Positions 21,502-51,157 of a stretch of DNA of 64,000 nt are shown piece after piece. Location: positions 832,001 through 896,000 of the forward strand of contig OZ250169.1 of the NCBI GenBank assembly GCA_965237955.1, in the 5' to 3' direction. The stretch comes from Candidatus Marinacidobacterales bacterium (GTDB lineage: Bacteria > Acidobacteriota > Vicinamibacteria > Marinacidobacterales > SMYC01). Every line of letters begins with the position of its first letter. The first letter of the stretch is position 1. The position numbers were made by a program, and so were the translations under genes. The notes under the pieces are model-generated. The model was not told where the DNA came from. It ran no database searches and was given only the letters and a program-made list of their open reading frames with translations.

Positions 21502-22263
21502 TCATCCCTGGTCTTTTTTGAAATGATTCGCTCGATGCCATGCGAGCCGTTTCCGGTGCTCTTCTGTCAAGGGAATGGGATGATGCCAGCGCAGCTCGGT
21601 TCGTGCCGGCTCGCTCAGTGCAGGCGAGAACTCTGGTCTCCCGTCGTCATCGAAGGTTATTAGTCCCCTGTCAAAGGCCGCATCCCAAAGTGCTGAGAGA
21701 AGCAGTCCGTTGTGAATGTTCAGACGTTCGGCGTCGTCGGGGCAGTCCTTCCAGGGAATGATGTGCGAGGCGCGCAGCAAGTCTCGGTCCGTGATTCCGG
21801 TCAAGGGGCAGCGGCCTTGCCAGTAGGTCAGCAGACGGTCGCGAAAGATGTCTTGGCCAATGCGCTGAACGACGAGGCGCTCGGCCTCGGTGGTCTTCGG
21901 CAGGTTGCGGGTTGCGGCGCGGAAGTCTTTGAGCGGGGCTTCGGGCAACGCTACGCCAAGGGCATAGACCTTGGGCAACACTGCATAGAGTTCGGTTAGC
22001 GTGGCGAAGGTATAGCGGGCAAGACCGGGACCGGGCATGCCGGCGCGTGGATGCTCCAGTTCCTCGACGACGCCCGTGTGGTCGAGAGCGAGGAACCAGG
22101 GACCGGAAGGCCCCGTCGCGGAGAGGTAGATGGTCCCCTTCGCAGTCGTGGAGCCGTATCGTGCCCAGCCGGTCTTCTCTTTCATAGGGCGGCGATAGCC
22201 ATTCTGCCAAGCGGCCTTCCGGCATTCCTCAGCGACGACGAAGCCTTGAGGTATTTCGATCAC
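21502..22263 (-). CDS. HNH endonuclease (HNH_2 type)
   Basis: QRIGQ..FR..L..YW.G.CPLTG, LRASHIIPW, NGLLLS..WD.AFDRG. The GTG start overlaps the methylase TGA (GTGA). Confidence 0.9.
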   Translation of the reverse strand: MIEIPQGFVVAEECRKAAWQNGYRRPMKEKTGWARYGSTTAKGTIYLSATGPSGPWFLALDHTGVVEELEHPRAGMPGPGLARYTFATLTELYAVLPKVYALGVALPEAPLKDFRAATRNLPKTTEAERLVVQRIGQDIFRDRLLTYWQGRCPLTGITDRDLLRASHIIPWKDCPDDAERLNIHNGLLLSALWDAAFDRGLITFDDDGRPEFSPALSEPARTELRWHHPIPLTEEHRKRLAWHRANHFKKDQG

Positions 22264-25200
22264 AAATCGAGTTCCGTGAATTGGCCACTCACCTCCATCT
22301 GATCCCACGCGGCGAGGACGAGGCGGCGAGTGCGGTATTCGCCGTATTGGCGGACTTCCTTTTCCTTGAGTACACGGAAAGTTTCCGAGGGATAGTCGGG
22401 GCCCTTCACGTCGGCGGGGTCGAGTATATAGCGCAGCTCGTCGCGGGTCAGACCGTAGGCGCGAGCGTAGAAAGCGTCGAGATCGGCGCGCAAGTAGGCG
22501 CGGCGTTTTTCATCCCAGGCGAAGGGGGGGCCTTCATAGCCGAGGTCCCGGGCGAAGGAAGTCATTGCGTGTGAGGTATAGGTGAGTTCGAGCACCTTTG
22601 GGGTAAGAAAAGTTACGCGCTCTTGCGTGTAGAAGCTAGGAGGGAGAAGCGTAATCTGGCGCATAGTGAAGAACTTAAAGGAAGTGCCCCCAACTTTCTG
22701 GCGTGCAATGAAGTCAGTCACAAGCGAGTTCAAATTCGCATAAAGAGCCGAAACTCTTGAGGTACAGTGGTCCGGAAGCATCAATAAAAACTTGTCGTTG
22801 TAGGCAACGCGCGGAACCAAACAAGCAATCACTGTCCGCTCGTCGGTCGCCCGCGCGATATCACGCCACCCCATCAACCAGCCTCGGGACCAGCCTTTGG
22901 CAATGAGGCGCTCGTTCACTTCAGTATCCGGCACCCAATAACGGGGGGCGGGCTCGCAGGTCGGACGCTGCTTTTCCGTCTGGCCAAGGTTGGCCGAGCT
23001 TTCGCCGTCCTCGTCATAGCCCGCCCAGCGATGATCGAATTGATGGATCATCTTCGCCTCGTAGAGCGGTACATAGCGCATGGCGCGAGGCCCACTGTCC
23101 GAAAGCGGCAGGCTGCCGCCGTCAATCTTGTCACCTGCCCGCGCGCCTTGTGAGGGGCGCTGAGCGGAGCAAACCCAATCGGTGCCTTCGCGCACAAACC
23201 CCGCTTCTGCTAGCTCCCGTGCAGTGCGGAACAGGGAGGAATCGTTGGACATGTCGAACAGTCGCGCGAAGCTCACGCCCCACGGGTTACCTTGCTTCCC
23301 CTTGGATTCGTCGATGAGTATCGGGGCGTTGGCGTAGATCTTTGCCGTCAGTTCCGCATCGGTGCGGGAGCGGAAGATGGGTACCGTACGGGTGTTGGGG
23401 TTGATCGCCGCGATCTGCTCTGGGCTAAGGGGAAAGTTTCGCTCCGGTTCTGCCAGTTGCGCCGGGTCGGTCAGGAAGAAAGCAAATCGGGCGGCGCCTT
23501 CGTTCCGTCCAAGAGTCAGCAGACTAAACTTTATCCTGCTGTCTATTGGGAACAATCGATCGCGGTTCTCGAAATCCACCAGTTGTGCGAGCCGCCGCTC
23601 TTCGACCAACGCGGCGAAGAATGCCGCGGTGGTGGCATCGGTGGCGATACCAGTGGGTACGATCACCCCGGCGCGATCACGCGTGAGGCGTGAGAACAAC
23701 TCGGCAAACAGCGCATAGGTGTTCACGTCACCCCGCCCGGTCAGGACGAATCGTCCTCCTTCGTCGTCGGGGATGCGCACGAATTCGCTGGTCGCCTCGG
23801 CCTGGTGTTTAGCGTCGATGAAGGCAGCATGTAAGGCATGCTCGGTACTGTCTTTGGGAGCTATTTCCAGCGCCTTGATCAGCCGTGCGCGCGCGGCCTT
23901 ATTCTGGGCACCCGCGATCTCCGGCGAACGGGCGGCGAAGAATTCCTGCTCCTGCAGCTTTATCCGTTCCCACGGAGGGTTGCCCAGGACCACGTCGAAG
24001 CCGTCGCGCGCCATGATGTCGGGGAACTCCAGCGGCCAGTGGAAGGCTCTGGCTTGACGGGCGGCCTCGGGTGCTCCCGTCATGGATTGCCGAATCGTGC
24101 CTTGGCTCAAGGCCAGCCAGACTTCGTCGGTCGTGGGCACAGTGCGTGCCTTGGTGCTCAAGGGCGTGCCCCCGATCTTCGGCAGAAGGAAGGCCCCGAC
24201 ATAGAGGTCCGACGCGGCCCGCGCGCTTGCAAATGCCTCCTTCTCACGCAGTTCTTGAAACCGCGTTGCCTTTGCGCCGATTTGCTCGACCGTGTCTTCG
24301 GGGAGGTTGCGGAAGCCCGAAAAATCCCCCGCCAGCGGCTTTATCGCCGGCAGTACCGCTTGGCCCGTGCTGAAGTCGAACTCGCCTTGGCCTGCCGTCG
24401 CGTCGCGGTTCGCTCTGAGGTAGTACTTCGCGGTGACCTTGTCATCTCCGGTCAACGGCTTGTAGGCAGCATCGGGAATGCCGTCCTCAAGAACCTTTAG
24501 ATCAAAGATACCGAGCAGCGCATCGCCGCAGCGGACCTGCGCGTCGAAGAAGCCGAGGGGCAGACCCGGGTCCACCGTCTCGATCCAGAGCGCTACCTTG
24601 GTGAGCTCTACGGCCATGGGATTGCGGTCGACCCCGTGGATGCAGCATCGCGCGACATCGCGGAGCGCATGGCGGAAATCGGCGAGCGAAGGCGTGCCTT
24701 CGGCCCGGATGCGAGCGAGTCGTGTGGCGATGCGCCTTGCCGCCGCCAGAAGAAAGTGGCCTGAGCCGCACGCTGGGTCGATCACAGAAAGCCTGAGCAA
24801 CGCTTTCGCCGGGTCCTTCGCCTCGGCTTCGATCCGCTCGGGCACGGGGTCGAGCGCGGTGTCGAGGAGTGCTTGAACGAGGCTGTCGGGCGTGTAGTAA
24901 GAGCCGGTAGTCTTGCGCTGATTGCCCTTCTGCTCCGAGACGTCGGAGGCGAAGACCAGCGCGCGGCCATCATCCGCCAGTTGCGGCTGGAGTTCGAGGA
25001 GGGATTCATAGACCGAGCCTAGCTCCTCAGTCTCCATTGCCCGCCAGTTGACCGGCACCATACCGCTTTGGTCGGAAAGCCAGGAGAGTCGATAGACGGC
25101 CTCCATGAAGGCGCTGTTCTGCAGGCGGGCAGAGGCTAGATGCGGCAACTGGTCGGCTCCGAAGAGGCCGCCGAGGGCAGGAAGCGCGAGCGCGTCTTCA

Positions 25201-26243
25201 CCGGTCGCGAGTGCACGGAAGACCACCTTCATGCCCTCGTAGCGGTCATAGTGGCGGTCCCACGTCGCACCGCGCACGCAGTGCGCCCTGAGCATCGCAA
25301 GACCATAGCCGTCGATATAGAGCGTTCGAGCATCCCTCTTGGCGTTGGTGGGATGGAGAAGATTCCGGTCCTCGGCCACCATCAAGAAGATGAGCCGGTA
25401 GACGAGGCGCAGGAGCTCGTTGAACCAGACCGTCAACGATAGCGCGCCTGACTGAAGCCGTGCGGCGAGGCTTGGGTTTACGTCGAGGAAGCTCGAGCCA
25501 AGAACGCGGAGGGCGACCTCGACCTGGCCTGCCAGCCGGTCCCTTGCAGCCTCTCCTTCGCGCGCACCGGCTTCCCGCCAACGTTCAAGGGCGCAGTCGG
25601 TGGCGGGGGTTCCGGCCGCCCCGAAGCGGGAACGGTGAATGAGAAGCCAGAGCGCCGCGAAGGAGGCCGCGTCCTCGTTGGTGAAGATCTGGCTGAGGTC
25701 GGCCTCGATATGGGCGGGCCGAGTGAGCGAGGCATTGTCGCGCAGCAGGCGAAGATGAACGCCGTTGGTGGCAAGGCCCCAGAGCGCCTCATCATGCTCA
25801 TTCAGATAGTCCTGAAGCGAGAACATGGGAGAACGCGACCTGTCGGTCGAAAGGGTTGGGCTGCGCCTTTCGAGTGACTCCAACGGAGGCACGACGATGA
25901 TCGGTACGCGTTGGCCTCCAGCGATGCAGGTAACCATGCCCGATGTGTCCGTGAGGTCGGCGAATCCGAAGGTTTCCTTCAGGAAGTCATGCGCGAAGCG
26001 GCGCGTCGCTTCTGCCGAGGGCGTGTCTATTTTGGTGAACCCATCGAAGTGCGCCTGTCCGACACGGAAAGCGAGGGAAATTTCCTCTCTGATGGTGAGT
26101 CCCTTGCGAACCTCGTAATCGTCTTCGGTCTGCTCCGCGGCCTCACGGCGGTCGATTTTCGCGACCATCGCCGGAGCAATCAGATTCCCCTCGAGCGAAA
26201 GCGCCGGCCAAGCGGACATATCGGTGACTTGCTTGCGCGCCAT
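22260..26243 (-). CDS. Large N6-adenine DNA methyltransferase (type IIG/Eco57I-like, DrmMI-like)
   Basis: GSYYTP, DPACGSGHFL (motif I), GNPPW (motif IV) and a C-terminal TRD-like region. Confidence 0.92.
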   Translation of the reverse strand: MARKQVTDMSAWPALSLEGNLIAPAMVAKIDRREAAEQTEDDYEVRKGLTIREEISLAFRVGQAHFDGFTKIDTPSAEATRRFAHDFLKETFGFADLTDTSGMVTCIAGGQRVPIIVVPPLESLERRSPTLSTDRSRSPMFSLQDYLNEHDEALWGLATNGVHLRLLRDNASLTRPAHIEADLSQIFTNEDAASFAALWLLIHRSRFGAAGTPATDCALERWREAGAREGEAARDRLAGQVEVALRVLGSSFLDVNPSLAARLQSGALSLTVWFNELLRLVYRLIFLMVAEDRNLLHPTNAKRDARTLYIDGYGLAMLRAHCVRGATWDRHYDRYEGMKVVFRALATGEDALALPALGGLFGADQLPHLASARLQNSAFMEAVYRLSWLSDQSGMVPVNWRAMETEELGSVYESLLELQPQLADDGRALVFASDVSEQKGNQRKTTGSYYTPDSLVQALLDTALDPVPERIEAEAKDPAKALLRLSVIDPACGSGHFLLAAARRIATRLARIRAEGTPSLADFRHALRDVARCCIHGVDRNPMAVELTKVALWIETVDPGLPLGFFDAQVRCGDALLGIFDLKVLEDGIPDAAYKPLTGDDKVTAKYYLRANRDATAGQGEFDFSTGQAVLPAIKPLAGDFSGFRNLPEDTVEQIGAKATRFQELREKEAFASARAASDLYVGAFLLPKIGGTPLSTKARTVPTTDEVWLALSQGTIRQSMTGAPEAARQARAFHWPLEFPDIMARDGFDVVLGNPPWERIKLQEQEFFAARSPEIAGAQNKAARARLIKALEIAPKDSTEHALHAAFIDAKHQAEATSEFVRIPDDEGGRFVLTGRGDVNTYALFAELFSRLTRDRAGVIVPTGIATDATTAAFFAALVEERRLAQLVDFENRDRLFPIDSRIKFSLLTLGRNEGAARFAFFLTDPAQLAEPERNFPLSPEQIAAINPNTRTVPIFRSRTDAELTAKIYANAPILIDESKGKQGNPWGVSFARLFDMSNDSSLFRTARELAEAGFVREGTDWVCSAQRPSQGARAGDKIDGGSLPLSDSGPRAMRYVPLYEAKMIHQFDHRWAGYDEDGESSANLGQTEKQRPTCEPAPRYWVPDTEVNERLIAKGWSRGWLMGWRDIARATDERTVIACLVPRVAYNDKFLLMLPDHCTSRVSALYANLNSLVTDFIARQKVGGTSFKFFTMRQITLLPPSFYTQERVTFLTPKVLELTYTSHAMTSFARDLGYEGPPFAWDEKRRAYLRADLDAFYARAYGLTRDELRYILDPADVKGPDYPSETFRVLKEKEVRQYGEYRTRRLVLAAWDQMEVSGQFTELDL

Positions 26244-26246
26244 GGC

Positions 26247-29012
26247 TCACGCCTCGCTCGGCAACAGAACGAAGAGGCCGATGACGTCAGGGGGCTGGAC
26301 GCCTTCCACGCTCACGCGCGATGCCGACCCTGCAGCCGCCCGCAGTCTGGCATGGTCTTCCGCAAGCTTATCAGCACGCACGCGTACGAACTCGCCGATG
26401 GGACCGGCCACGAGGTCGGGCAGATCTTCCTGCGCGCGTTGGATGAACCGATCCCTTGCCGTTGGAGCCAGATCGGCAGCGGCGGGTGTGTCGAGGAGCG
26501 TCTTTGCGGCATCGCCCGATGCGACAATGGTGCCGTCGTGCAAGGCGACCAGCGCGGCTTCTTCCGCGAGCAGCAGGCGTTCCTTTCGGGCATGGATTGT
26601 GAGCTTGAAGCGAAGCCTCAGAAGCGCGATCCACGTCACGCGTTCCACGGCTGGGGTCGGCCATGCCCCCACACGACCGATTCCAAGGTTGGCGAGCGTT
26701 TCGGGGTCGAGCGATGCCTCGACAAGCGCCTCCGCAAGGGTTGCGGTGCGGGGGTGGGTCCGTGTGAGAAGCGCTGTCCCTGAGGGGGCTGGCTCGGACG
26801 GGGCAAGCCGCACAGACCGGGACATACCTTGTTGCGCCAGGCGCTCGCGCAGTCCGGCTTCGAGCGCATGAACGTGGGCCACGAGGACCGACCTCCGTGG
26901 CTCCAGGGGGACGCCAAAACGCGACATGGTGCGTTCGATGAAGGTGCGAGCTGCCTCCGGCGAACCGAGGAAGCTTGCAGCCTTTTTCCATTCGGGAGCC
27001 ACTTCTTGCGGCTTCATAGTGTTCTGGGCGAAGCGAGTCCGGGAGCGTTTCTCCTTCTCCGAGACGTCGCGCCAACGGGTTTCGACGAGGCGAGCACCGT
27101 CCTTGAGACGCAGATCGAGTGTCATCTGCTCCCTACCGCCCTGGCGAAGCATCATCGAAGCCATGAGGGCATCGGTGACGGGGGCCCGTTCGTCCGGGAG
27201 GGGCACGGTCACGCCAGTCACCTTACGGATCTCCTCGGCCTTGCGCAGGATGACGTCCAGGACGGCACCGTCGATCGCGCTCGCCGGCGAGAACATCATG
27301 ATCGAATGGACGAGTTCGGCGGGCTGGCCGAAACGGTCGACGCGACCCTCCCGCTGCTGATGGCGGGTCGGATTCCACGAAAGATCGTAATGAACCACCG
27401 TGTCGAAGAGCTGCTGGAGATTGATCCCCTCCGACAAGCAGTCGGTAGCGACCAGAATACGCTGGACCTCTTTCTCGTCTTCCGCAGGCGCCATATCGGC
27501 GACCCGGTCCCGTCGCTCGTCCGGTGTGAGCACTCCAGTGACGGCCTCGACGCGCAACTTCGGGAAGGATTTCCGCAGGCCGTTGCGAACGTGCTCTGCC
27601 GTGGCAAGATACCGGCAGAAGACGACCGGGTTCGCGCCCTTCTTCAGGAGGGGAGTGAGGACACCGACCAGCGCGTCGAGCTTCGGATCGGGCTCCTTCG
27701 TCAGGCGTTCAGCGTGCCGGACAAGGCTCAGGAGGGCAGGATCCGCATCGAACGCCACGCTCGGCTCGATGTCGACGGCGTCCTCGTCATCCCCATCCTC
27801 GTCGTAGATCTGAGACTCTAGACGCTCGGCTTCATGCGTCATGCGGTTACGCAGTGCGCTCAGAGCTGCGGTGGTTGACGAGCCGATGCAACGCATCAAT
27901 GCCAGCGTTCCCCAGAACGCCAGTCGGCGCTCGCGCTGGCTGGTTCCCGCACGGGAGACCACGCCCAGGCAATAGTCGAGGACGGCTTCCTGGAAATCGA
28001 GATAGGCCTTCGATAGTGGATAGGGCGTCTCCGTAGTTTCGTGCTTCGGGAAGGCACGCTCCTCGCCCCATTCGCCAGATACCAAATCGATTCTTCGCCG
28101 CTGCACGAAGTGACGGGCCAGGCGCTCCCGGTAACGGGCGTCGTCGAAGCTCAGAGAGGCAAATTCCAGGTCGACCAGGGACAGAAGGCGTGAGAACGCC
28201 TCCTCATCACCCGAATGCGGCGTGGCTGTCAGCAGGATCATGCGCCGTTGCGGATCGCGGGCGAGACCTTGGAGAAGTGCAAACCGCTGCTGCTTACCTT
28301 TATGAGTGCCCACGCAGGCATGGGCCTCATCCACGATCACGAAGTCGGGACAAGCCCGGGCGAATCCCTCTCGCCGCTTCTCAGCCTTGATGTAGTCCAG
28401 GCTGACCACCGTGTAGGGATAGGCATCGAAAAGCGTCTGCGCAACGGGAAGGCCACGCTCCAGCCGCGCGGCGGAGCCCGATGTGACCGCTACGGGGTCC
28501 ATACCGAAGCGGGATTTCAGTTCGAGCACCCATTGTTCGACGAGGTGAGGCGGGCATAGGACCGAGAAGGCATCGACCTCGCCGCGATCCAAGAATTCCC
28601 GAAGGATGAGACCAGCTTCAATCGTCTTGCCGATACCCACGTCATCCGCTATCAAGAGGCGAGGCACTTGGAGGCGAAGCGCCATCAGCAGCGGCACAAG
28701 CTGATAGGTCCGTGGCTCGAAAGCGAGCTGCGCTGCTGAGCGGAAAGGACCGGCCCCGCGCCGGAGAGTGAGGCGAAGCGCATCGGCAAGAAGAGCCGCC
28801 TTCGACTGGACCGTTGGAACGGCGTTTTCGGGCAGGTAGAAGCGGGCAGGTCCGACGGGCTCGCTCTCGAGCCGGGGGTCGAGAAGAACAGTGTCCTTCT
28901 CGTTGCCGGAAAGGGGGCGCAGCGCGAGTAGGTGGTCTCGGGGTGCTGGTAAGGCAACCCATTCCCGACCCCGGGCACGGACAAGGTCGCCTGGAGCAAA
29001 GGAAAGAGGCAT
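26247..29012 (-). CDS. SNF2/RapA-like SF2 helicase (DrmD-like)
   Basis: LLIADDVGIGKT, DEAH, TATPH, SEGINLQ, WNPTRHQQREGRVDR. Start assigned to MPLSF. Confidence 0.92.
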   Translation of the reverse strand: MPLSFAPGDLVRARGREWVALPAPRDHLLALRPLSGNEKDTVLLDPRLESEPVGPARFYLPENAVPTVQSKAALLADALRLTLRRGAGPFRSAAQLAFEPRTYQLVPLLMALRLQVPRLLIADDVGIGKTIEAGLILREFLDRGEVDAFSVLCPPHLVEQWVLELKSRFGMDPVAVTSGSAARLERGLPVAQTLFDAYPYTVVSLDYIKAEKRREGFARACPDFVIVDEAHACVGTHKGKQQRFALLQGLARDPQRRMILLTATPHSGDEEAFSRLLSLVDLEFASLSFDDARYRERLARHFVQRRRIDLVSGEWGEERAFPKHETTETPYPLSKAYLDFQEAVLDYCLGVVSRAGTSQRERRLAFWGTLALMRCIGSSTTAALSALRNRMTHEAERLESQIYDEDGDDEDAVDIEPSVAFDADPALLSLVRHAERLTKEPDPKLDALVGVLTPLLKKGANPVVFCRYLATAEHVRNGLRKSFPKLRVEAVTGVLTPDERRDRVADMAPAEDEKEVQRILVATDCLSEGINLQQLFDTVVHYDLSWNPTRHQQREGRVDRFGQPAELVHSIMMFSPASAIDGAVLDVILRKAEEIRKVTGVTVPLPDERAPVTDALMASMMLRQGGREQMTLDLRLKDGARLVETRWRDVSEKEKRSRTRFAQNTMKPQEVAPEWKKAASFLGSPEAARTFIERTMSRFGVPLEPRRSVLVAHVHALEAGLRERLAQQGMSRSVRLAPSEPAPSGTALLTRTHPRTATLAEALVEASLDPETLANLGIGRVGAWPTPAVERVTWIALLRLRFKLTIHARKERLLLAEEAALVALHDGTIVASGDAAKTLLDTPAAADLAPTARDRFIQRAQEDLPDLVAGPIGEFVRVRADKLAEDHARLRAAAGSASRVSVEGVQPPDVIGLFVLLPSEA

Positions 29013-29017
29013 TTCGG

Positions 29018-32000
29018 TCAGTCTCTCAATGCCGCAATCAATTCGGCCGGCAGGCCTTCGGATGAGTCGGCCGGCAGTTCGAAGAGGCTCCATCCCCGGT
29101 CGTCCGCTGCGGCCTTCACCGCCTCCGGAATAACGCCCGCTCTCGCGGCAACGTAATGGCTATGCCAGGTGAAAGGGAACGAAACATCGGCAAGGGTTAG
29201 ATGCCTTGCGTTCGGCGCGGGGATGCCATGTTGGTCGAAGACCTCCGACCAGCCGCCCTCAGTCACAGTGCCTTCCGGCGCAGTCGCGAGCACGACCTTT
29301 CCTCGCGCGAGATCAATCAGCAGTTGCTGTACCGCGACGCTGGCACGGTCGATCAACTCGTGATCGGGCTGGTTGAAATAGGACAGAAGACAACGATAAC
29401 AGCCCCGCACGCAGGCTTCTTCGCGTTCCTTGAGAAGGTTCGGGTCGTCTGCGGCGATGGCGGCATCGACCTCGTCGAAATGCATGAGTTCGAGGGCTTG
29501 CCTCGCAACCTGGTTCAGTGCATCCGGATCTTCAATCAGGCGGCTCAGCACGCCCGCACCGCCCTCGCTTGCCTCATAGGCAAGGACAGCGCGCCGGTTA
29601 TCCCGGCTGGGTAATGGCTCTCCAAGAATTTCGCCTTCCTCAAGCTGGAAGACCACCGCGATACCCCGCATCAGGGCATGCTGGAGTGTGGCGATGGTGC
29701 TCTGGTCATGGCTATCTTCGAACCGAAACAAGAGGGCATTTTTCCGGTCCCGAACAATCGGAACGATCCGCACCAGCCTGACCACATCGGGCCGAACCTC
29801 CACGTCCTCTGGATCCTCATCCTCAGTCTTGGCCCAGTATCCCGTGCGGGGATCGATCGCGAATCCGAGCACAGTTTTGTTGCGGCGCCGCTTCAAGCCT
29901 TTGTTGATCCGACTTATTTCTGCGCTGTTGGCGTATTGCAATTTCATCAGAGGCGTATCCCCGACTTGAAACTCGGCCTCAGTGACCTCGACACGCCCGT
30001 GCTTTCTCGGCCATGCGAAAACGGTCTGAATCTCAAAGCCCTGGCGAATCCGTTCCTCGTCATTGGCGGTGATACGCTCGGTCGGAGCCGCTTCGACATT
30101 GTCGATCCTTAGCGTACGTTTGACCGGTATCGCTCCGGCCATCGGGAACTGGCAGGCGTGACAGCGCTCGACTTCGCCATTGTGAGCCCCACCACAGTTC
30201 GGACAAATCACGATGTCCTGCGTCGCAAGCTGCTGACCATCAGCGGTCCGGACTTCGGGAGGCAGTTTCGCCTTGACGACCCGAAATGCGCGGCCTTCAT
30301 GATAGATGAGACTGCGAGGGCCGAACTCGGAGATAGCAAGAAAGCGGGAGCGCTGCAGGTAGGAACCTGACCTGCCCTCGCCCGGGACGAAGGCGTAGAG
30401 CGGCAACCGGGGAAAATTGTAGCCAGGAAGAAACCCTTCGGTCGCAAGGTAACGGTACGAGTAGAAGTCCGAGCCGTGGGTTGACTTGCCTCGTTCAAGA
30501 AGGGTGACCTGATCCGTGGCCTGCATCTGTGCAGCCTTGATCTTGCGCCGCTCGGCTCCAGATAGTCCTGGCACTTGAGACTGCTTGTTGGCCTCGATCA
30601 GTTGCGTGCGCGCGGAGTCATAAAGGTCACGCCATCGGTCGAAGGCGCTGTTGAACTCCGCAGATGCCTGGGTAGCAACCTCCTTTACATAGTCATCCGG
30701 GTCATCTATCCAGATAGGCTTCCGCTCGCCGACTGATGTGAGGACTTGCTCAAGGACACGGCGCAGCGGGGCGCAGGCCTTGTCCACCAGGGCGGGATCC
30801 CGGATGACCCCCCAAATCTCGTCCCTGAGGGGATAGCCTGGTTTCTGGAGGTCGAGGATTTCGGGAATGTCCGGCGACAGGGCCAGCCCCGCTGTGGCAA
30901 GCCAGACCGCCTGTAGATGAGAAGTGATTAGGTTCTTGTTGGTGATGTCGAGTGCTGGCGGGCGAACCGCACCGGCCACCATGTCGATGCGCCGCTCGAA
31001 AAAATACTGATCATGCGGCGACTGGGCCGCACAGTAAGTGAAAATCAAGGCCGTCTGTCCTGACCGTCCCGCGCGGCCCGCACGCTGCACATAATTGGCG
31101 GGCGTAGGCGGAACATTGCGCAGGTAGACCGTATTCAACGCCGAGATATCGACCCCCAGTTCCATGGTCGGCGTACAGAACAACGCGGGGAGAAACTGTT
31201 TCGATTCCCCGCTGGCCTTGATTTCAGCCTCGCACTCCGCGATCCGTGCTCGGTCGTCGGCTTCGAAGCGGAAACGCCATTCCCGCCATTCCCGTTGCTT
31301 GTGGTTCACCTGGGCCGTATGCTCCCGGCTCTCCATGCCGAACAACGAGCTGGTGTTTGCCTCGAGATCGTCGGCAACTCTGGTATAGAGGCCGCGGAAG
31401 TAAGGATTGCCGACAGCCGCTGCGCTCGGAGTGGCTTTACCTGCAATCAGTCGAATGGCTGAGGGTGATAGACGCCACCCTTGAAGTTCGCCTTCACTGG
31501 CCGTCAAAGTCACAAGCCCTTCTCCGGCCAGAATGGCAAGGAGATTGGTAAGGAAGGTGATGTAGTCGTCCCCACCAAGCTTGGTACCGATGATGCTCTC
31601 ATGGTTAATGAGGCGCGCTATGCGCGAACGCGGACCCGCGCGAAGGATCATCCGTTCTTCACGCAGACTGGTAACTTTCTTGCCAGGGGCTTTCAGGAAG
31701 AGGGTGGTACGCTCCCGCGTTGTTTCCTTGTCATCGATGCTCCAGGGAGCTCGCAGGACCGACCGCGATCTCTGGGCAACGGTGTCCAGAACGGCAAGAT
31801 CGAGAGCCTCGGTATCGACAGCTAAGCCTTCGAGCATGGCCGTTAGCAAAATCCTGATGACCTTCTTGCGAGCGTCATGATCCAGAGAGTCGAGCTCAGG
31901 CAGAATAGCCGCGAGTCTCCCCACGTCCGCAGCCACGTCGTCGAGCCCAACGAAATCCACATCGATCAACTTCAGCACGGAGAGGTTCGGATTAGTGAAA

Positions 32001-34186
32001 CGCCAGCCCCGACGCAAATCAATCCAAACGCGGTGCGCGAGCACTTTGGCCAACGCCCGCTCCGCGTCGCTGCGGACCACGGCCCCAGCCTCGGGACTCA
32101 ACATCCAGTGCACCCGCAGCGCCGTGTTCGCACCCGTAAAACCCAAGGCCCGCTGAACACGGAAGCCAAATTCGTCATCCCGCAGACCATCCTCACCGGC
32201 ATCGAGAACAGCCCGCAGGATGGCTCCACGCAGAAGAGTCACGAACAGAAAATCGTTGAAATGACCCACTTGAAGCGCCGCGTCCTGGCGGTTGTCGGTG
32301 AACCCAAGCAGCTTCCGCTTGTCCTCGGGAACCGCATTGTTGGGTTGGTTCAACCACTCGAGAGCGCTCGAGACGAGAAGCGTGGTCGCCGAGCTTCGCC
32401 CTTCAGCAGTAAGGCCCGCAAGCTTGCTGCGCTCGCGCATGCGGCTTGGCGGCTCATGGAGACAGCAGGCACAAAAGCCGAATTTGCCGGGGATGAACCA
32501 GAAGGGCTCACCGTCGTCGTCGGGATGACCGCTACCCGCGACTCTCACCTTCCTCGGCACGCGGGTTTTCCGGTACGGCCGCAGTTTGAGTAGCTCCTTG
32601 CGCTCTTCCGTCCAGCCTTCCGGAAAGTTCTCGAGCGTGCCGTCGAACCGGTAGTCCGGCTCCCCGAGACCGGCCGGCGTCAGATACCCGGCAACTTCCG
32701 TATCGTCGTCTCTCTCGATTGGGATGTCTTCGATGTTGCGCGGCAGGAAGAGGACACCATCCTCCTGCTCCGTTCTCGTCACCACGTAGTACTCCTGACC
32801 GCACTGGCGGCAGAAGCGAATGGGATAGAGCCGGGTTCCAGGAGCATCGGGATCCTCGAGTTGTCCCTCGAGCAGAACGGTTCGCTCCTTCAAACGCAAT
32901 GTTGCGAAGATGTCACCCGCACCCGCGATGAAACGATGCAGCTTGAAGGCCATAAACGCGTGTTCGCCACTACCACCCCGGTCCTTATCAGGGAGGCTGA
33001 CGCGAGTCAGGAAGTTCTCCAGCACCTCACCGCAGCGCTTGGGGTCGATTCCGCTATCCTGGGCAAGCAACTTGGTAGCTTCGACAAAGGTTATTGGCCG
33101 TCGCCGCTTGAGAATCTGGCCATCCTCCAGACCGAGCACCAGTTCCACCCAAACTGCCAGCGGATGAGTGACGAGCTCTGCATCGGTCAGCCGTTCGGGA
33201 AGGTCTCTCTTGAGTGCATTCGCAAGCTTCGGGACAACGTCTGCGCGCGCCAGACGCTCGTCCGTGGCCCGGCGCAGCGACTCGTCGATCACTCCGTCCA
33301 GGCCGATCGCGGTTCCAAACAGACGTGAAACCACCTTCGAGACTTCCAAGGCCCGGCTGGCACCACTGCCTTCGCTGGACATCGTCGCAGAAGTCCCAAT
33401 ACAGAGTGGAGCCTTGTTAGGCGTACAGCGATCGCGTAGCCGACGAACAAGAATGGCAACGTCAGCGCCCTGGCGGCCGCGGTAGGTATGCAACTCGTCC
33501 AGGACGATGAACTCAAGCCCCCTCGCGTTCGCCATGACTTGAGAATCGACGGGGTCTTGCCGAGTCAGCAAAAGCTCCGCCATCATGAAGTTGGTTAAGA
33601 GAATATCCGGCGGATTGTCCGCGACCCGCTGGCGTTCCTCCTGGTTCTCCTGTCCGGTGTAACGCCGGACCACCGGCCTGAGATTCTCCGAAAGGCCTGA
33701 CTGGTCGATAAATTTGTTGATTTCCTTGACCTGGCTGTTAGCGAGTGCGTTCATCGGATACACGATGATCGCCCGTGTCCTCGGCGCATCGCCAGCCTTC
33801 CGCGCACGGATAATGGCATCCACGATCGGAACGAAAAAACAGAGGGATTTGCCCGAGCCGGTCCCCGTGGTCACAACGAAACTCTGTCCCGCCCGCGCTT
33901 TGGCGAAGGCCTGTCCCTGGTGCCTGTAAAATGGAAGCCGCTTCGACCCGAACGGGAAAACCTGGGCCGTTTCCGGGCAAACGTCGCCGGAGTTGAGGAG
34001 ATCGTCAGCGGTTGGCCCCGCTTCGTATCGCGGATTCAGGGAAAGAAGAGCGTCCGGCCAGAAACGGCCTTCCTTATACTCGCGTTCAATCGCCTCACGT
34101 AGGTCGGGCGCCTTGATGGTACTGAAAGACTGGGAGAATCGAGCGTAGCTCTCGACAATGTGGCGATCAAAAAGAAAGGCCTTCAT
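29018..34186 (-). CDS. 1722-aa DEAD/DEAH-box helicase with C-terminal DUF1998-like Cys cluster (DrmA+DrmB-like / DruE-like)
   Basis: TGTGSGKS, YPMNALANSQ, DELH, SAT, TPTMELGVDI, QRAGRAGR. C-terminal E..EGGAG...C..GCYRCLLSYFNQ..H. Confidence 0.9.
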   Translation of the reverse strand: MKAFLFDRHIVESYARFSQSFSTIKAPDLREAIEREYKEGRFWPDALLSLNPRYEAGPTADDLLNSGDVCPETAQVFPFGSKRLPFYRHQGQAFAKARAGQSFVVTTGTGSGKSLCFFVPIVDAIIRARKAGDAPRTRAIIVYPMNALANSQVKEINKFIDQSGLSENLRPVVRRYTGQENQEERQRVADNPPDILLTNFMMAELLLTRQDPVDSQVMANARGLEFIVLDELHTYRGRQGADVAILVRRLRDRCTPNKAPLCIGTSATMSSEGSGASRALEVSKVVSRLFGTAIGLDGVIDESLRRATDERLARADVVPKLANALKRDLPERLTDAELVTHPLAVWVELVLGLEDGQILKRRRPITFVEATKLLAQDSGIDPKRCGEVLENFLTRVSLPDKDRGGSGEHAFMAFKLHRFIAGAGDIFATLRLKERTVLLEGQLEDPDAPGTRLYPIRFCRQCGQEYYVVTRTEQEDGVLFLPRNIEDIPIERDDDTEVAGYLTPAGLGEPDYRFDGTLENFPEGWTEERKELLKLRPYRKTRVPRKVRVAGSGHPDDDGEPFWFIPGKFGFCACCLHEPPSRMRERSKLAGLTAEGRSSATTLLVSSALEWLNQPNNAVPEDKRKLLGFTDNRQDAALQVGHFNDFLFVTLLRGAILRAVLDAGEDGLRDDEFGFRVQRALGFTGANTALRVHWMLSPEAGAVVRSDAERALAKVLAHRVWIDLRRGWRFTNPNLSVLKLIDVDFVGLDDVAADVGRLAAILPELDSLDHDARKKVIRILLTAMLEGLAVDTEALDLAVLDTVAQRSRSVLRAPWSIDDKETTRERTTLFLKAPGKKVTSLREERMILRAGPRSRIARLINHESIIGTKLGGDDYITFLTNLLAILAGEGLVTLTASEGELQGWRLSPSAIRLIAGKATPSAAAVGNPYFRGLYTRVADDLEANTSSLFGMESREHTAQVNHKQREWREWRFRFEADDRARIAECEAEIKASGESKQFLPALFCTPTMELGVDISALNTVYLRNVPPTPANYVQRAGRAGRSGQTALIFTYCAAQSPHDQYFFERRIDMVAGAVRPPALDITNKNLITSHLQAVWLATAGLALSPDIPEILDLQKPGYPLRDEIWGVIRDPALVDKACAPLRRVLEQVLTSVGERKPIWIDDPDDYVKEVATQASAEFNSAFDRWRDLYDSARTQLIEANKQSQVPGLSGAERRKIKAAQMQATDQVTLLERGKSTHGSDFYSYRYLATEGFLPGYNFPRLPLYAFVPGEGRSGSYLQRSRFLAISEFGPRSLIYHEGRAFRVVKAKLPPEVRTADGQQLATQDIVICPNCGGAHNGEVERCHACQFPMAGAIPVKRTLRIDNVEAAPTERITANDEERIRQGFEIQTVFAWPRKHGRVEVTEAEFQVGDTPLMKLQYANSAEISRINKGLKRRRNKTVLGFAIDPRTGYWAKTEDEDPEDVEVRPDVVRLVRIVPIVRDRKNALLFRFEDSHDQSTIATLQHALMRGIAVVFQLEEGEILGEPLPSRDNRRAVLAYEASEGGAGVLSRLIEDPDALNQVARQALELMHFDEVDAAIAADDPNLLKEREEACVRGCYRCLLSYFNQPDHELIDRASVAVQQLLIDLARGKVVLATAPEGTVTEGGWSEVFDQHGIPAPNARHLTLADVSFPFTWHSHYVAARAGVIPEAVKAAADDRGWSLFELPADSSEGLPAELIAALRD

Positions 34187-35055
34187 CTAGCGCTCTGGAT
34201 TCGTGCCCGGGAAATGTCTCCGGGGGCATCAGGTTTTCGCCGGGTGCCGTCCCTGATTCTTAACGGATGGAGCCTACCATGGTCAGGTGAATCAGGCGGG
34301 TACTGTCACGTTTTCCACGGCCTGACGGCCACCCTGAATGAACGAAACGCGGTAGTCTCTGGAGGTGGCACCGGCTCAACACGACGCCTGAGGGAGCTCG
34401 GTTTTGACGTCACTGCCCCCAAACGCTACACCCTGAGTTTCTTATTAGTTGGCATCGAACGAGCCAGCCGACCCTGGCCCGGTCGCAAACACAGACACTA
34501 AGCTGCTGATTGATGGTCTATTTCAAAAGGGCCGAGTTTTGGCACAGGACGGGAGCGGGCGCTGACCGGGCCGTGCGGCAGCGGAAAAGAGGCCACCTGA
34601 GAGGCCCAGAATCGAGGCCAGTGCTACCGCGGCGTAGCGGGCCTAGCAAGTTCTGGTCCAGGTGCGGCCCGGTGTGCTCCGCAAAAAGTCGATCCAGCGT
34701 TGATTGCGCGGTTTATACCGGCGTTGTTGCACGGCCCGGAGCTCGCCCCGCAGTCGATTTGAGCCAGCCGTGCGCACCCCCGGTGGGCCTGTCGCTCGCC
34801 ACCCGCAGCCAAGGGTCGTAAGTCAGCCCTGCGGCGCGAAATACCCTCGATTCTGCGCGGATTCCAAGGGCGTCTAAGCTGCTGATTTGTGGTCTATTTC
34901 AAAGGAACTTACAAAGGTAGCTTGACACGCCCGTAAGCCATTGCGTTTAAGCGTCTTCCGAATTAAAGTCCGAGCACCCCACCTCTACATATAGTGGATG
35001 CGCGTTTTAGACCCTGACTACTACATATTGTGCCGACTAGCTCCGGCGTCGCGTG

Positions 35056-35328
35056 TCAAGCGCTTTTTTTCTTGCGGAGTTGCGGGAGATGGTCGGCGGC
35101 ACATTCCTCAATTTCGAAAGTTCGCACCAGTGAGCGCACTACTGCCCTCTCGATACTGGCCTTCCCGGACCTGTGCTTTATATGTTCACCTAAAGGTAGC
35201 TGGTGGAAAAGCTTACTGCCACACTTGATGATCCATTTGTGCCTGCCTTTTTTTTTGCTGTATCCAGGAAGGCATTCATCAAGCATCTTCCAGATCTTAG
35301 TGATTAGAATCTGTCCGTAGCCAGACAT
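35056..35328 (-). CDS. Small basic protein, HicA-like toxin candidate
   Basis: 90 aa with G.H and LP...H...I...V.SL..F.I pattern. Lies directly downstream of the HicB-like gene. Confidence 0.5.
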   Translation of the reverse strand: MSGYGQILITKIWKMLDECLPGYSKKKGRHKWIIKCGSKLFHQLPLGEHIKHRSGKASIERAVVRSLVRTFEIEECAADHLPQLRKKKSA

Positions 35329-35339
35329 GCGCGAAGATT

Positions 35340-35849
35340 TTACGCAGCCGTAGCGATATAATTATCGACTCGTTCAAAGGCTTGCCTGGGTTCTCTTTTA
35401 ACTGGCCTTATGGTTAAAGCGCTTTGCCAGAAATCGTCGGTATCGCGATTGAGTGGCACTGAAGGTGTTATCTCACCGCGCCGTACTGCTGCTCGGGCCG
35501 CAACCCAATCTCTCTCTTCTGGGACATTGACCTGCCTAACGAATCCGGTCACTCTGGCCTTGAAGTCTTCGAAATCGTCGGAAAGATATGACAGCTCCGA
35601 CAAAATCTGTGCCAGAGAATTCTTGAAAGCATAGTAGGATTCGTTCAATGTGTCTCCCTCATCGGCGATCCCACCCGGCTCAACTCCATTAAACGAATAC
35701 ACGACATGATCGTCCACTTCTTCCTTGATTGACATCGCCCTGCCTTTGATGTTGACCTCGGCTACGAAATCTGGACCGATCACGGTATCCTGAAACGTGT
35801 AAAACAGGGGTAATGTTTGGAGGGCATTCTCATCCATGGACAGTTCCAT
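35340..35849 (-). CDS. Acidic protein with HicB-like motif
   Basis: PGGIADEGDTLNESY..FK.SL..IL resembles the HicB PG...G.T..EA motif. RBS-like GAGAGGGA upstream. Confidence 0.55.
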   Translation of the reverse strand: MELSMDENALQTLPLFYTFQDTVIGPDFVAEVNIKGRAMSIKEEVDDHVVYSFNGVEPGGIADEGDTLNESYYAFKNSLAQILSELSYLSDDFEDFKARVTGFVRQVNVPEERDWVAARAAVRRGEITPSVPLNRDTDDFWQSALTIRPVKREPRQAFERVDNYIATAA

Positions 35850-35902
35850 TTCTTTTCCCTCTCTTTGGGGGAAGGGAGGATATTGCGCGCCAGGTGGACT
35901 TG

Positions 35903-36157
35903 TCAAGTATGGCTTTGGCTTGGGGCGCGGCTCCAGCGTGCTTTTGCCGCTTTCTTTGCGATGAAGGAGCGTTTGGTCGCAGAGAGCTTAGCGGCACGCG
36001 CTTTGCCTCCGGCGATAGCCCTCTCAACGACTTTCGGATCATCGGGAGCCTCCGGCGGCTCGTAAGTCTCTTCGCTTTCGCCTGCGGCGATCTTGCAGAT
36101 GTGAGCGGCGAGAGCGCCAGCTCCGACTGGACGCCATTGCCCCTGTGGTCCTCTCAT
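35903..36157 (-). CDS. Small basic protein with GGKARA.KLS...RS.IAKKAA.ARW motif (commonly IS1595-associated)
   Basis: 84-aa ORF. Motif recognised from recall of IS1595 passenger genes. Confidence 0.65.
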   Translation of the reverse strand: MRGPQGQWRPVGAGALAAHICKIAAGESEETYEPPEAPDDPKVVERAIAGGKARAAKLSATKRSFIAKKAAKARWSRAPSQSHT

Positions 36158-37385: not shown

Positions 37386-37514
37386 CGTCCTGTCCAAAAA
37401 CACAAACGAACTCAAGACTGGCGCGCCGGGCCGTCGCCGAGTTTCATCTATCATTATGATGGAGAGCGCAACCATCAAGGGCTTGGCAACGTGTTTGTGT
37501 TTTTGGACACGACG
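37386..37514. mobile_element. 129-bp MITE with 22-bp rve-type IRs
   Basis: CGTCCTGTCCAAAAACACAAAC ... GTTTGTGTTTTTGGACACGACG. A solo end also occurs at 21148-21196. Confidence 0.8.
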
Positions 37515-37589
37515 GCGTTGGCTATGTTGTGCAGGAGTGTTTTATCATCTGCCGAGTACCACAACCGAAAAGAAACGGAGATTGGAACA

Positions 37590-38810
37590 GTGAGCTTGAA
37601 GAAAGGCGAGCTGGTTGATTTCGAGGCTCACCTTGTCGGTCGGTCACGGAATGCCGCAAAGCCGAGGGTCAAGCGCGGCCGGAAGAGCACATTGACCGCA
37701 GACCGCATGGAGAAGCTCCTTGGGTGCGTCAGGCGCGGATTGAGTAACAAGGATGCCTGTATGGTCGCAGGTATAAGTGAGACAACATTTTACAGGTGGA
37801 TAGAAAAAGGAAAACACGCGAAGCGCGGGCTATATCGGGAATTTTGGGATTCACTCCAGGCCGCTCATGCCCACTTCCAGAAATTCCACCTCAAAGCCAT
37901 TGCGCGGAGCTCGCTGGAAGAGACGCAGAGTACCCGAGAGGTGATCGAGTACGAAGGTGGCGAGGTCGTAACCCTGCCGGACGGGAAGAGGCAGATCCGC
38001 CCTGGGAAGGTGAAGTCGGTGAGGCTAGAGATTCACACGCACCCACCGACGCCGAAGGGTTCGATGTGGCTGCTCGCGCATCGGTTCCCTGACAAATGGG
38101 GCCGGCGGCGCACAAAACTTCCGGCAGCAGATGCAAATGCATATGCAAAGATTGTGCTTTATATCCCGGACGATGGCAGGAGTCGAGATTCGCAAGTAAG
38201 CTTGAAGGAAGGCGACGTGGTTGATTTCGAGGCTCACCCTGTCGGTCGGTCACGGAATACCGCAAAGCCGAGGGCCAAGCGCGGCCGAAAGAGCAAATTG
38301 ACCACAGACCGCATGGAGATGTTCCTTGAGTGCGTCAGGTACGGATCAACCAACAAGGATGCCTGTATGGTCGCACGTATAAGTGAGACAACACTTTACA
38401 GGTGGATTGAAAAAGGAAAACACGCGAAGCGCGGGCCACATCGGAAATTTTGTGATTCACTCGAGACCGCTCTTGCCCACTTCCAGTACGTCCACCTCCA
38501 AGCCATTGAGCGGTGCTCGTTGGAAGAGACGCAGAGTACCCGAGAGGTGATCGAGTACGAAGGTGGCGAGGTCGTAACCCTGCCGGACGGGAAGAGGCAG
38601 CTCCGCCCTGGAAAGGTGAAGTCGGTGAGGCGAGAGATTCGCACGCACCCACCGACACTGCAGGGTTTGATGTGGCTGCTCGAGCGTCGGTTCCCTGACA
38701 AATGGGGCCCGCCGCGCAAAGAGCTTCCGGCAGCAGGTGCAAAGGGGAAGGCTGTGACTTATTATCTCCCGGACAATGGTAGGAGTCGAGATTCGAAGCT
38801 GAAGATCTAG
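37590..38810 (+). CDS. Internally duplicated HTH protein, phage small-terminase-like
   Basis: Two ~202-aa units (606-bp offset), each with GRKS.LT, AC..A.ISETT.YRW..KG and WLL..RFPDKWG. GTG start with GGAG RBS. Confidence 0.65.
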   Translation: MSLKKGELVDFEAHLVGRSRNAAKPRVKRGRKSTLTADRMEKLLGCVRRGLSNKDACMVAGISETTFYRWIEKGKHAKRGLYREFWDSLQAAHAHFQKFHLKAIARSSLEETQSTREVIEYEGGEVVTLPDGKRQIRPGKVKSVRLEIHTHPPTPKGSMWLLAHRFPDKWGRRRTKLPAADANAYAKIVLYIPDDGRSRDSQVSLKEGDVVDFEAHPVGRSRNTAKPRAKRGRKSKLTTDRMEMFLECVRYGSTNKDACMVARISETTLYRWIEKGKHAKRGPHRKFCDSLETALAHFQYVHLQAIERCSLEETQSTREVIEYEGGEVVTLPDGKRQLRPGKVKSVRREIRTHPPTLQGLMWLLERRFPDKWGPPRKELPAAGAKGKAVTYYLPDNGRSRDSKLKI

Positions 38811-39040
38811 GCGTAGAGCGTCTTCTCATTGGCTGGGCAATTGGCTTGGAAAAACAGCCCGATCAACCCCGTCCTGTGCCAAAACTCGGCCCTCTTGAAA
38901 TAGACCACAAATCAGCAGCTTAGACGCCCTTGGAATCCGCCGACCCTTGGGCTGCGGGGCGAGCTGCGGGCAGTGAACTGCGCACCCGGAAGTCCCTCAT
39001 TAGGCTGGACTTTATCGAGCACAAGAGCGAACGTTCGGTG

Positions 39041-39472
39041 ATGCCGCAGGATACAGGGGTTGGCCGGAACGTCGTTTTGGACGGTTTGGACTTCGCCAGC
39101 TTACGGCGGGTCTGGGAGCAGACCTTTGGGGCTGCTCCTCCAAGCTCGCTCTCGCGTGTTTTCCTGCGCCGCGTTCTCTTGCACGAACGCCAGTGCCGGA
39201 CCCATGGCGGGCTTTCGGCCGCAACCCGGCGCGCTCTGGCCGCCATGGCGAACGAGACACCAAGCTCCGGCGCTCCCGCAGGGTCCGTTTCTGCCGGCAC
39301 CCATCTCGTCCGCGAGTGGAATGGCCGGACCTACCAGGTCGAGGTAATCGACAACGGCTATCGGTTCGATGGCAAAACCTATCCGTCCCTCACTACCATC
39401 GCAAAGCGAATCACCGGCACCCACTGGTCAGGACCACGCTTTTTCGGTCTGACGCCCAAGCGCAAGGCCTAA
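39041..39472 (+). CDS. DUF2924 domain protein
   Basis: L...W...FG..PP, GT.LVREWNG..Y.V, Y.SL..IA..ITGTHWSGPRFFGL. Confidence 0.88.
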   Translation: MPQDTGVGRNVVLDGLDFASLRRVWEQTFGAAPPSSLSRVFLRRVLLHERQCRTHGGLSAATRRALAAMANETPSSGAPAGSVSAGTHLVREWNGRTYQVEVIDNGYRFDGKTYPSLTTIAKRITGTHWSGPRFFGLTPKRKA

Positions 39473-39473
39473 C

Positions 39474-41136
39474 ATGAAGAAGATCCGCTGTGCCATCTAT
39501 ACGCGAAAGAGTGCGGAAGAGGGTCTCGAACAGGAGTTCAACTCCCTCGATGCGCAGCGAGAAGCCTGCGCCGCGTATGTCGCGAGCCAGAAAGCGGAGG
39601 GCTGGGTGCTGCTGCCAACCGTCTACGAGGACGCGGGGCTCTCGGGAGGAACCCTGGAGCGCCCGGGCCTGCAGCGCTTGCTCGCCGACATCGACGCAGG
39701 TCTCGTCGACCAGATCGTGGTCTACAAGGTCGACCGGCTGACCCGTTCCCTCTCCGACTTTGCAAAGCTCGTCGAGCGGCTCGAGGCGGCCGGCGCGGTT
39801 TTCGTCTCGGTGACTCAGTCCTTCAACACCGCGACCAGCATGGGACGACTGACGCTGCATATGCTGCTGTCCTTCGCACAAATTCGAACGCGAGGTCACG
39901 GCCGAGCGGATCCGCGATAAGGTCGCTGCCTCCAAGCGCAAGGGACTATGGATGGGCGGCCGCGTACCGCTAGGCTATGAGAAGGACGGGCGCACGCTGC
40001 GCATCAACGAGGCTGAGGCCGAAACGGTCCGGACGCTCTATGCGCTGTACCGAAAGCACGAAACGCTCCGGCAGGTGAAGGCCGAGGCGGACCGTCTGAG
40101 ACTGCGTACCAAGCAACGCTTCGCCGCGGATGGAACCCGAACGGGCGGGCTGCCGTTCCGTCGCGGACACCTCCACTGCCTGCTGACCAATCCTCTCTAC
40201 GCCGGCCGCATCCGGCACCAGAGGCGTGTCTACGAGGGCCAGCATCCATCGATCATTGCTCCGGAGCTCTGGGACACGGTCCAAACGCAGCTGCAGGCAG
40301 GGGCTGCCAAACCAAGGAGACGCACGACGAAGGGCCGTGCAGCCCCCTCCCCACTGGCAGGCAAGCTCTTCGACGAGACCGGGGACCGGCTGACGCCGAG
40401 CCACACCAAAAAGAAAAACGGGCAACGGCTCCGCTACTACGTCTCCCGGCGCCTCATCCAGCACAGTGGCCAAAAGGACCTCTCCGGCTGGCGACTGCCC
40501 GCCCCGATGCTGGAACAGACCGTCGTGCATCTCATCCGACAGCATGTGGATGCCACGACCTTCTCGGCCTCGTTGATCCACACTCCGACGATGCAAGAGC
40601 TCGCCTCGGTGCGTCGCTTTTTAGACGGGCTGTGTTCCGGTAGCAATGATGATAGTGCCTCGGCAGCCCCCCTGCTCCGTCTTATCCGGCAGGTCGATAT
40701 CAGCCCCGGCTCTGTGTCCATCCTGCTCGACCGCAATGCGTTCGCTGATTGCCTGTCTATGGGACCTGACCGCATTCGCGAGGATGCACTCCGCATCCTC
40801 GCACCGTTCCGCTTGCGTCGACGCGGCGTCGAGACCAAGCTCGTTCTGGGCAACCCCACGAAATCCGTCGACCGCACACTCCTGCGCAATATCAGAAACG
40901 CCCTCTCCTGGCTCGACCGAATCAAAGCAGGCAAAACCTATGAGCAGATTGCCACCGAAAACGCCATCCCAACGGACCGCGTGCGCAAGGCAATCCGTTA
41001 TGCCTTCCTGGCTCCCGACATCGTCCGCGCCATTGTCGAAGGCCGCCAGCCCGTTGGGCTGACCTCGAGCTACCTCTTGCATCATCCGCTTCCCGACGAT
41101 TGGGAGAAACAGCGAGTGCTCGTCAAAACGCTGTGA
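39474..41136 (+). pseudogene. Large serine recombinase split by a +1 frameshift
   Basis: RCAIYTRKS, YKVDRLTRS, SFAQ|FEREVTAERIRDK with an extra A near 39882. Recombinase domain and FLAPDI...IVEGRQP tail. Confidence 0.88.
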
Positions 41137-50736: not shown

Positions 50737-51157
50737 TGTGCTTCGCAAAAACTCGATTCGTCGTTGATTCCGCAGTTTAGACCTGCCAGGATTGGCCGTT
50801 TCGCGGCGAATGGATGACGTGATCCGGCGTCATTGTAAACGTGGAGGTCGTCTGGTCAAAATACTCGAACGCCCAGTGGGTCAGCAGGTTGCACCTTTCC
50901 AAGGGCTGCCTGAATCCGGCATCGCGGTCGGATACGTGTTCCTTCCGGGTGCGCAGTTCGTTGCCTGCAGCTCGCCCCGCAGCCGATTTGAGCCAGCCGT
51001 GCGCACCCCCGGTAGGCCTGTCGCCCGCCACCCGCAGCCCAGGAGTCGGAAGCCAACTCTGCGACGAGAAATACCCTGGATTCTGCGCGGATTCCAAGGG
51101 CGTCTAAGCTGCTGATTTCCAGTCTATTTCAAAAGGGCCGAGTTTTGGCACAGGACG
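50737..51157. mobile_element. 421-bp non-coding MITE bounded by two different rve-type ends
   Basis: TGTGCTTCGCAAAAACTC ... GAGTTTTGGCACAGGACG. Interior pieces recur at 1347-1385, 34740-34900, 38905-38990 and 54625-54660. Confidence 0.75.

Follow-up and report, generated by a model that had tools for sequence, protein, structure and literature searches.

Related Defence Systems

The ARMADA systems were named in 2025 (Bell et al. 2025, 10.1101/2025.09.15.676423 / PMC12458937). In the passages of that work covered here, ARMADA Type I consists of a YprA helicase, then a BrxHII-like helicase and then a PglX-like methylase, and a typical Type I Vsr domain is fused to the helicase and predicted to be active. 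The Type I helicase is further described as having zinc-binding CxxC modules in its RecA2 insert and OB region, together with BrxA-like, MarR-like and coiled-coil HTH insertions. ARMADA II, in the corresponding passages (Bell 2025; PMC13463889), has the order ArmA-ArmB-ArmC-ArmD, where ArmD resembles GajB and is a UvrD helicase and ArmC carries further domains besides a Vsr predicted to be active. It provides broad, non-abortive anti-phage defence requiring the Walker and NPPW motifs, and a passage of PMC13463889 suggests a sequence-independent mode for it. The DruE helicase of Druantia Types I and II likewise terminates in a Vsr that is predicted to be inactivated (Bell et al. 2025, PMC12458937, in the passages covered). 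The subject of this work is a four-gene operon at positions 21502 to 34186 of a 64,000-nucleotide stretch of DNA, called the window, from a Candidatus Marinacidobacterales bacterium (GCA_965237955.1, contig OZ250169.1, positions 832,001 to 896,000). With moderate confidence, we regard it as an intact ARMADA Type I operon from a subclade that is mostly proteobacterial; its helicase has lost the catalytic motifs of the fused Vsr, and a separately encoded HNH protein would be the cutting effector.

The Operon and Its Assignment

The operon has four open reading frames (ORFs) on the minus strand, with all frames and the helicase, methylase and HNH motifs intact (Table 1). The TGA of armC lies 5 bp before the ATG of armA, the TGA of armA lies 3 bp before the ATG of armB, and armB and the HNH gene overlap in a GTGA; the tight coupling described in the first-pass annotation was thus confirmed, coordinates and junctions alike. 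The armA start used here is the ATG common to relatives, whereas the 948-amino-acid call of the ORF finder begins within armC. Pfam identifies DEAD, Helicase_C and MZB/DUF1998 in ArmC, SNF2-rel and Helicase_C in ArmA, Eco57I and N6_Mtase in ArmB, and HNH_2 in the fourth protein. These matches agree with the earlier naming of an SNF2-like helicase, an N6-methylase, an HNH nuclease and a large helicase with DUF1998; only the "DEAH" label of the last does not hold, since the ArmC Walker B is DELH. Walker A and B, motif VI, DPACGSG, NPPW and the HNH residues are all retained. At columns at least 95% conserved among relatives, the window's proteins mismatch at one of 279 (ArmC), one of 193 (ArmA), one of 173 (ArmB) and none of 57 (HNH). 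Neither a sigma-70 promoter nor a terminator was found in 34150-34500.

Table 1. Genes and domains of the operon, in window coordinates.
Feature	Position	Strand	Description
armC	29018..34186	-	SF2 helicase of the YprA family in fusion with OB-CON-DUF1998 (MZB) and a degenerate C-terminal Vsr; 1722 aa
DUF1998/MZB zinc-binding domain of ArmC	29387..29686	-	aa 1501-1600; Pfam PF09369, E 3.9e-10
Vsr-fold tail of ArmC	29021..29290	-	aa 1633-1722; S.LE, PDF and DG..H motifs lost; predicted catalytically dead
armA	26247..29012	-	BrxHII/RapA-like SNF2 helicase; 921 aa
armB	22260..26243	-	PglX/DrmMI-like N6-adenine methyltransferase; 1327 aa
Hypervariable segment of ArmB	22644..23696	-	about aa 850-1200; putative target-recognition region
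HNH endonuclease	21502..22263	-	253 aa, GTG start; HNH_2 (Pfam)

The order armC-armA-armB is that of ARMADA Type I. Matched by contig accession, at least nine of 12 contigs whose helicases are 67-79% identical to the window's appear as "ARMADA Type I helicase" entries of Table S1 of Bell et al.; the look-up took in 34,868 rows, out of nearly 52,000 proteins, and the other three contigs are absent from those rows. The listed helicases include ones 77%, 74%, 71% and 70% identical to ArmC of the window. Judged by sequence, the three-gene core is ARMADA Type I, because it has this gene order and because close helicases are listed as such. The window shares with Type I the three genes and their order, the OB-CON-DUF1998 fusion, the CxxC modules and a C-terminal Vsr fold, but differs in the loss of the Vsr motifs and in the separate HNH gene after armB. 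The proposal that the operon is a distinct new system is not upheld, since core and order belong to a described type with at least nine related contigs listed; a named system accounts for three of the four genes, the HNH gene being the one outside it. No new class of system is defined by this operon.

Other assignments were considered. PADLOC 2.0, which predates ARMADA, gives mixed matches to DruE, DpdE/DrmD, DrmMI and HNH, and no NCBIfam model reaches its cut-off with any of the operon's proteins (DrmD reaches 279, with its cut-off at 610). DISARM class I has in common with the window an SNF2 helicase (DrmD model, E 4e-75), an N6 methylase (DrmMI model, E 2e-70) and a YprA-type helicase. However, DrmA and DrmB are separate genes in DISARM and a single 1722-amino-acid ORF stands for both here, no DrmC or PLD domain was matched in the four proteins by PADLOC or Pfam, and ArmC matches DruE models better (E 4e-79) than it does DrmA (E 3e-15). 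DISARM class I is excluded by the helicase-DUF1998 fusion and the lack of a DrmC/PLD match. Druantia DruE is likewise a large YprA helicase-DUF1998 fusion, but Druantia is excluded by the partners of ArmC, which match DrmD/DpdE, DrmMI and HNH models, with no DruA-D, DruM/F/G or DruH among them. ARMADA II, whose ArmA, ArmB and ArmC have homologues in the window, is excluded since armC is first in the window and no UvrD/GajB match is present among the four proteins. The broader idea of the first-pass annotation holds: the operon is related to DISARM, is linked to methylation, fuses DrmA- and DrmB-like functions and is predicted to act against phages.

While the core system is already known, the form with a dead Vsr and an HNH is new to the literature searched. 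No HNH-carrying or Vsr-dead ARMADA was described in a search that had most subscription journals outside its scope and no view of figures. In the covered text of Bell et al. 2025, "HNH" occurs neither in the main preprint text nor in the supplement text, and in PMC12458937 it occurs only in a reference title. The dead-Vsr and HNH form was also not found in the covered passages of PMC13463889, PMC11090510 and 10.1101/2025.09.30.679545.

The Vsr Tail of ArmC and the HNH Gene

ArmC has CxxC motifs at residues 459, 572, 1328, 1342 and 1592, and it matched three sequences, over the helicase motifs only. Compared with the intact Vsr domains of ARMADA I, its tail lacks S.LE, PDF and DG..H and has a deletion of about ten residues. 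The DUF559 profile matches 14 of 14 intact tails and none of 26 dead ones. The Vsr fold is retained in the predicted model of the tail, and we predict from motifs and model that the domain is catalytically dead while its fold is kept. The first-pass annotation had an HNH replacing the PLD nuclease (DrmC) of DISARM; this is not the relevant exchange, since in ARMADA the nuclease domain is the helicase-fused Vsr, and it is that Vsr which is dead.

The tail was followed across related loci. Of 161 confirmed matches in a scan of GTDB genomes, the best 80 yielded 76 loci, and the tail survey comprised 116 loci, with the duplicates L049 and L158 dropped. The tail is dead in 87 loci: this HNH family is downstream in 66, is missing in one (L123, where an IS21 element follows armB), and 20 are uninformative, mostly at contig ends; among these 20, L128 has its HNH across the plasmid origin. 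The 29 loci with intact tails have this HNH family in none, and 13 of them are informative (at least 4 kb after armB; two with reversed gene order). The identity of the HNH protein to the window's copy follows that of ArmC (Spearman 0.78, n=45), and this co-divergence is as tight as that of ArmA with ArmC. That the HNH gene belongs with the operon is therefore well founded, as it is downstream in 66 of the 67 informative dead-tail loci and its identity tracks ArmC. A sample of 400 Pseudomonadota genomes, drawn evenly, has the HNH in all three informative dead-tail loci and in none of five informative intact-tail loci. In 401 genomes, the centre genome included, the HNH family is matched in six: next to armC in four (one being the centre genome), next to armA and LmuB remnants in one, and near a contig end in one. 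In helicase trees built without the tail (FastTree among the methods), dead tail plus HNH forms one clade with SH (Shimodaira-Hasegawa) support of 99-100.

The C-terminal domain of the HNH protein resembles VcaM4I, an EVE-HNH modification-dependent endonuclease (PDB 6yex). The N-terminal domain, examined for a modified-base reader (EVE, SRA, SBD), is alpha/beta and only weakly like MotA-CTD/YjbR. We suggest that the HNH is likely the replacement nuclease for the dead Vsr. It is also conceivable, if rather unlikely, that the core needs no nuclease for defence, acting for instance through the binding or unwinding of phage DNA, and that the HNH is a hitchhiking and probably modification-dependent Type IV-like enzyme that deals with modified phages beyond the reach of the core. 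Against hitchhiking are the near-universal presence of the HNH in the dead-tail clade with none found in intact-tail loci, its divergence alongside ArmC as closely as that of ArmA, and the placement of the six matches in the Pseudomonadota sample, five of them beside arm genes or remnants.

Several observations weigh against the HNH as replacement nuclease in an intact ARMADA Type I. Dead Vsr and HNH occur in essentially one clade, so that there is only one independent pair, and a second origin, at L128, is unsupported (approximately unbiased (AU) test of one clade for 12 dead-tail rows, p 0.34). Because of this single clade, the contrast of 66/67 with 0/13 falls short of statistical proof that loss of the Vsr motifs and gain of the HNH are coupled. 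Similarity to the helicase of the window itself was the criterion by which the 76 loci were selected, and the intact-tail loci were searched for this HNH family only. Orphan copies of the HNH, without a whole ARMADA, exist (L138, L139 and L140); they occur in this genome (L140) and on two of three plasmids checked, which show neither an arm nor an LmuB remnant within 13 kb. Aligned profile to profile (hhalign), dead and intact tails give a match that is weak by itself (E 0.028, probability 1.7%). Of the five near-identical copies of armC among relatives, four are broken by truncation or frameshift. In the passages covered of Bell et al. 2025, experimental tests of ARMADA are of Type II only (PMC12458937), and the table marks the Type I Vsr as "active?" (10.1101/2025.09.15.676423 / PMC12458937).

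The gene preceding the HNH varies among the 66 loci. It is armB itself in 16, an LmuB-like ATPase in 35 and another gene in 13; in two, armB is broken. The LmuB-like SMC ATPase between armB and HNH matches PADLOC LmuB (E 4.5e-17) and Pfam DUF2326, and in 33 of its 35 loci ArmB has a C-terminal extension of 170 residues. The extension never occurs without the ATPase. Neither Pfam nor PADLOC matches it, and it may represent an LmuA/LmuC-like adaptor in fused form. Example loci for the ATPase and the ArmB extension are L050:16823-18796 and L011:21900-22436. The frequent ATPase, most often with the ArmB extension, would fit an HNH that serves as a back-up abortive effector, cutting host DNA once the core is inhibited or activated and often controlled by the LmuB-like ATPase; Ambrosia, in the passages covered, is a described methyltransferase-plus-HNH system that may cut its own DNA. 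We consider this improbable, since the window and 16 of the 66 loci have the HNH right after armB with no LmuB, LmuB-like genes are also downstream in three intact-Vsr loci that lack this HNH, and ARMADA II is non-abortive.

Two further loci, L134 and L163 (NZ_CP128401.1:204031-223675), have an unrelated ARMADA I whose Vsr is partly decayed, with the catalytic His motif missing. After this ARMADA I come an EVE-domain protein and a DUF2357 McrC-like gene, which may represent a nuclease replacement of separate origin.

The Variable Segment of ArmB

ArmB has DPACGSG at residue 489 and NPPW at residue 755. Its N-terminal region is restriction endonuclease-like, with no conserved PD-(D/E)xK residues seen, and a search of solved structures by sequence gave no match. 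Comparison with the ArmB proteins of loci L001 and L004 shows 90-100% identity over residues 1-800; in residues 850-1200, identity is 38-48% in three of seven 50-residue blocks and 68-86% in the others. The synonymous divergence (dS) is near 0.9 in the divergent blocks versus 0.1 elsewhere. The ArmB of L005 is also a mosaic, but in other blocks. Apart from the segment that is swapped, the copies are 96-100% identical.

Target-recognition regions are exchanged in Type IIG and PglX enzymes. We propose by analogy that the variable segment is a putative exchanged target-recognition region, which would imply sequence-specific methylation by ArmB.

Proposed Mechanism

The following scheme treats the HNH as the replacement nuclease. 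ArmB would methylate adenines in a host motif that is set by its swappable C-terminal segment, marking self DNA. Together with ArmB, the SNF2 ATPase ArmA and the YprA-type helicase ArmC would engage incoming DNA that lacks the methylation; ArmC would unwind this DNA and the HNH would cut it in place of the dead Vsr. As has been shown for ARMADA II, the infection would be halted with the cell surviving. In this scheme the methylation and the motif it targets, the action against phages, the cleavage of DNA by the HNH and any physical contact among the proteins are inferred.

More generally, we lean slightly towards a widespread Type I subtype in which the Vsr has been exchanged for a free-standing, two-domain HNH as an obligate fourth subunit, the interval between armB and HNH is a cargo slot, and swapping of the ArmB segment changes specificity. 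As part of the same proposal, the slot would most often hold a Lamassu-like SMC ATPase, and the ArmB segment would be swapped between near-identical copies that move among related bacteria. If this is true, the minimal four-gene form splits recognition, unwinding and cutting onto different genes, and the effector step of ARMADA becomes directly testable. Whether ARMADA cuts DNA could be tested cleanly in a natural four-gene Type I whose nuclease is encoded separately, and natural ArmB alleles, with differences confined almost wholly to one segment, could show whether recognition of self and non-self is sequence-specific.

Selection, Distribution and Decay

Ratios of nonsynonymous to synonymous divergence (dN/dS) were calculated pairwise against relatives 98% and 80% identical. 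They are 0.09-0.23 for ArmC, ArmA, HNH and ArmB outside its variable region, in which the ratio is 0.21-0.41 where measurable. The purifying selection claimed in the first-pass annotation is therefore borne out for the operon outside that region. Its other argument, the length free of insertion sequences (IS), is correct as an observation: the operon is the longest repeat-free run of the window, at 11.7-13.0 kb, the next longest measuring 2.1-2.9 kb, in a window of which about 50-60% is repeats, with repeats flanking the operon on both sides. Taken alone it is weak evidence for selection, and as proof we reject it, since by the k-mer method 142 repeat-free runs of at least 12 kb, together 48% of the sequence, are present in the 8.1-Mb genome.

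The nearest copies of the operon, 96-99% identical, are in Candidatus Marinacidobacterales. Near-identical copies are present in five of 40 relatives (four genera in two families), and one is whole, the other four being the broken copies already described. The genome of the window has a second remnant at C1:2820168-2821595 (within L140:14154-15595, C1:2820153-2821594), consisting of the 3' end of armB and an intact HNH gene. Its armB allele is 60% identical over residues 1104-1327, its HNH is 93% identical to that of the window, and the break is bordered by the end of a multi-copy repeat. In the tree, the surrounding clade is mostly Alphaproteobacteria, and horizontal spread of the operon is likely because the Marinacidobacterales copies lie within that clade.

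The decayed copies in relatives, the broken second copy in this genome and the commonness of repeat-free runs of similar size are what would be expected if the operon were a recently acquired passenger in an IS-ridden genome, non-functional or soon to decay. We think this very improbable: four frames and their motifs are intact, dN/dS is 0.09-0.23 even against copies 98% identical, and the operon is the sole long repeat-free run in its repeat-rich window.

At least half of the operon's sampled words were present in 19 runs. One metatranscriptome run has short contigs in 23 of 30 operon bins, with depth up to about 5; in the same run, a control stretch of the genome ranges from 0 to about 100 (contigs only). 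These contigs are at most a weak hint of transcription.

Surroundings of the Operon

Upstream of the operon, at 35056-35906, are two small genes of lower GC content (90 and 188 amino acids) with no Pfam match, possibly a HicA/HicB-like pair. Elsewhere in the window are a 439-residue ORF with two similar repeats containing a helix-turn-helix (37491-38810), and a DUF2924 gene with a serine recombinase divided into two ORFs (38930-41136); an undivided, 588-residue copy of this recombinase is at L140:17554-19320. By their domain matches, 42263-43234 (weak GmrSD_N, E 6e-4) and 51145-52122 (LA2681-like HEPN domain, E 2e-25) appear as further defence-type debris. At the left edge of the window (25-1122) is the C-terminal part of a BrxL-like Lon ATPase, a BREX component (E 6e-49), and then repeats. 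At another locus, L141:7995-10658, a separate Type IIG-like restriction-methylase ORF has an apparently intact PD...ESK and is truncated by an IS5-like transposase. The 1300-residue protein encoded at 56226-60128 has six Calx-beta repeats and an autotransporter barrel and is probably a surface adhesin.

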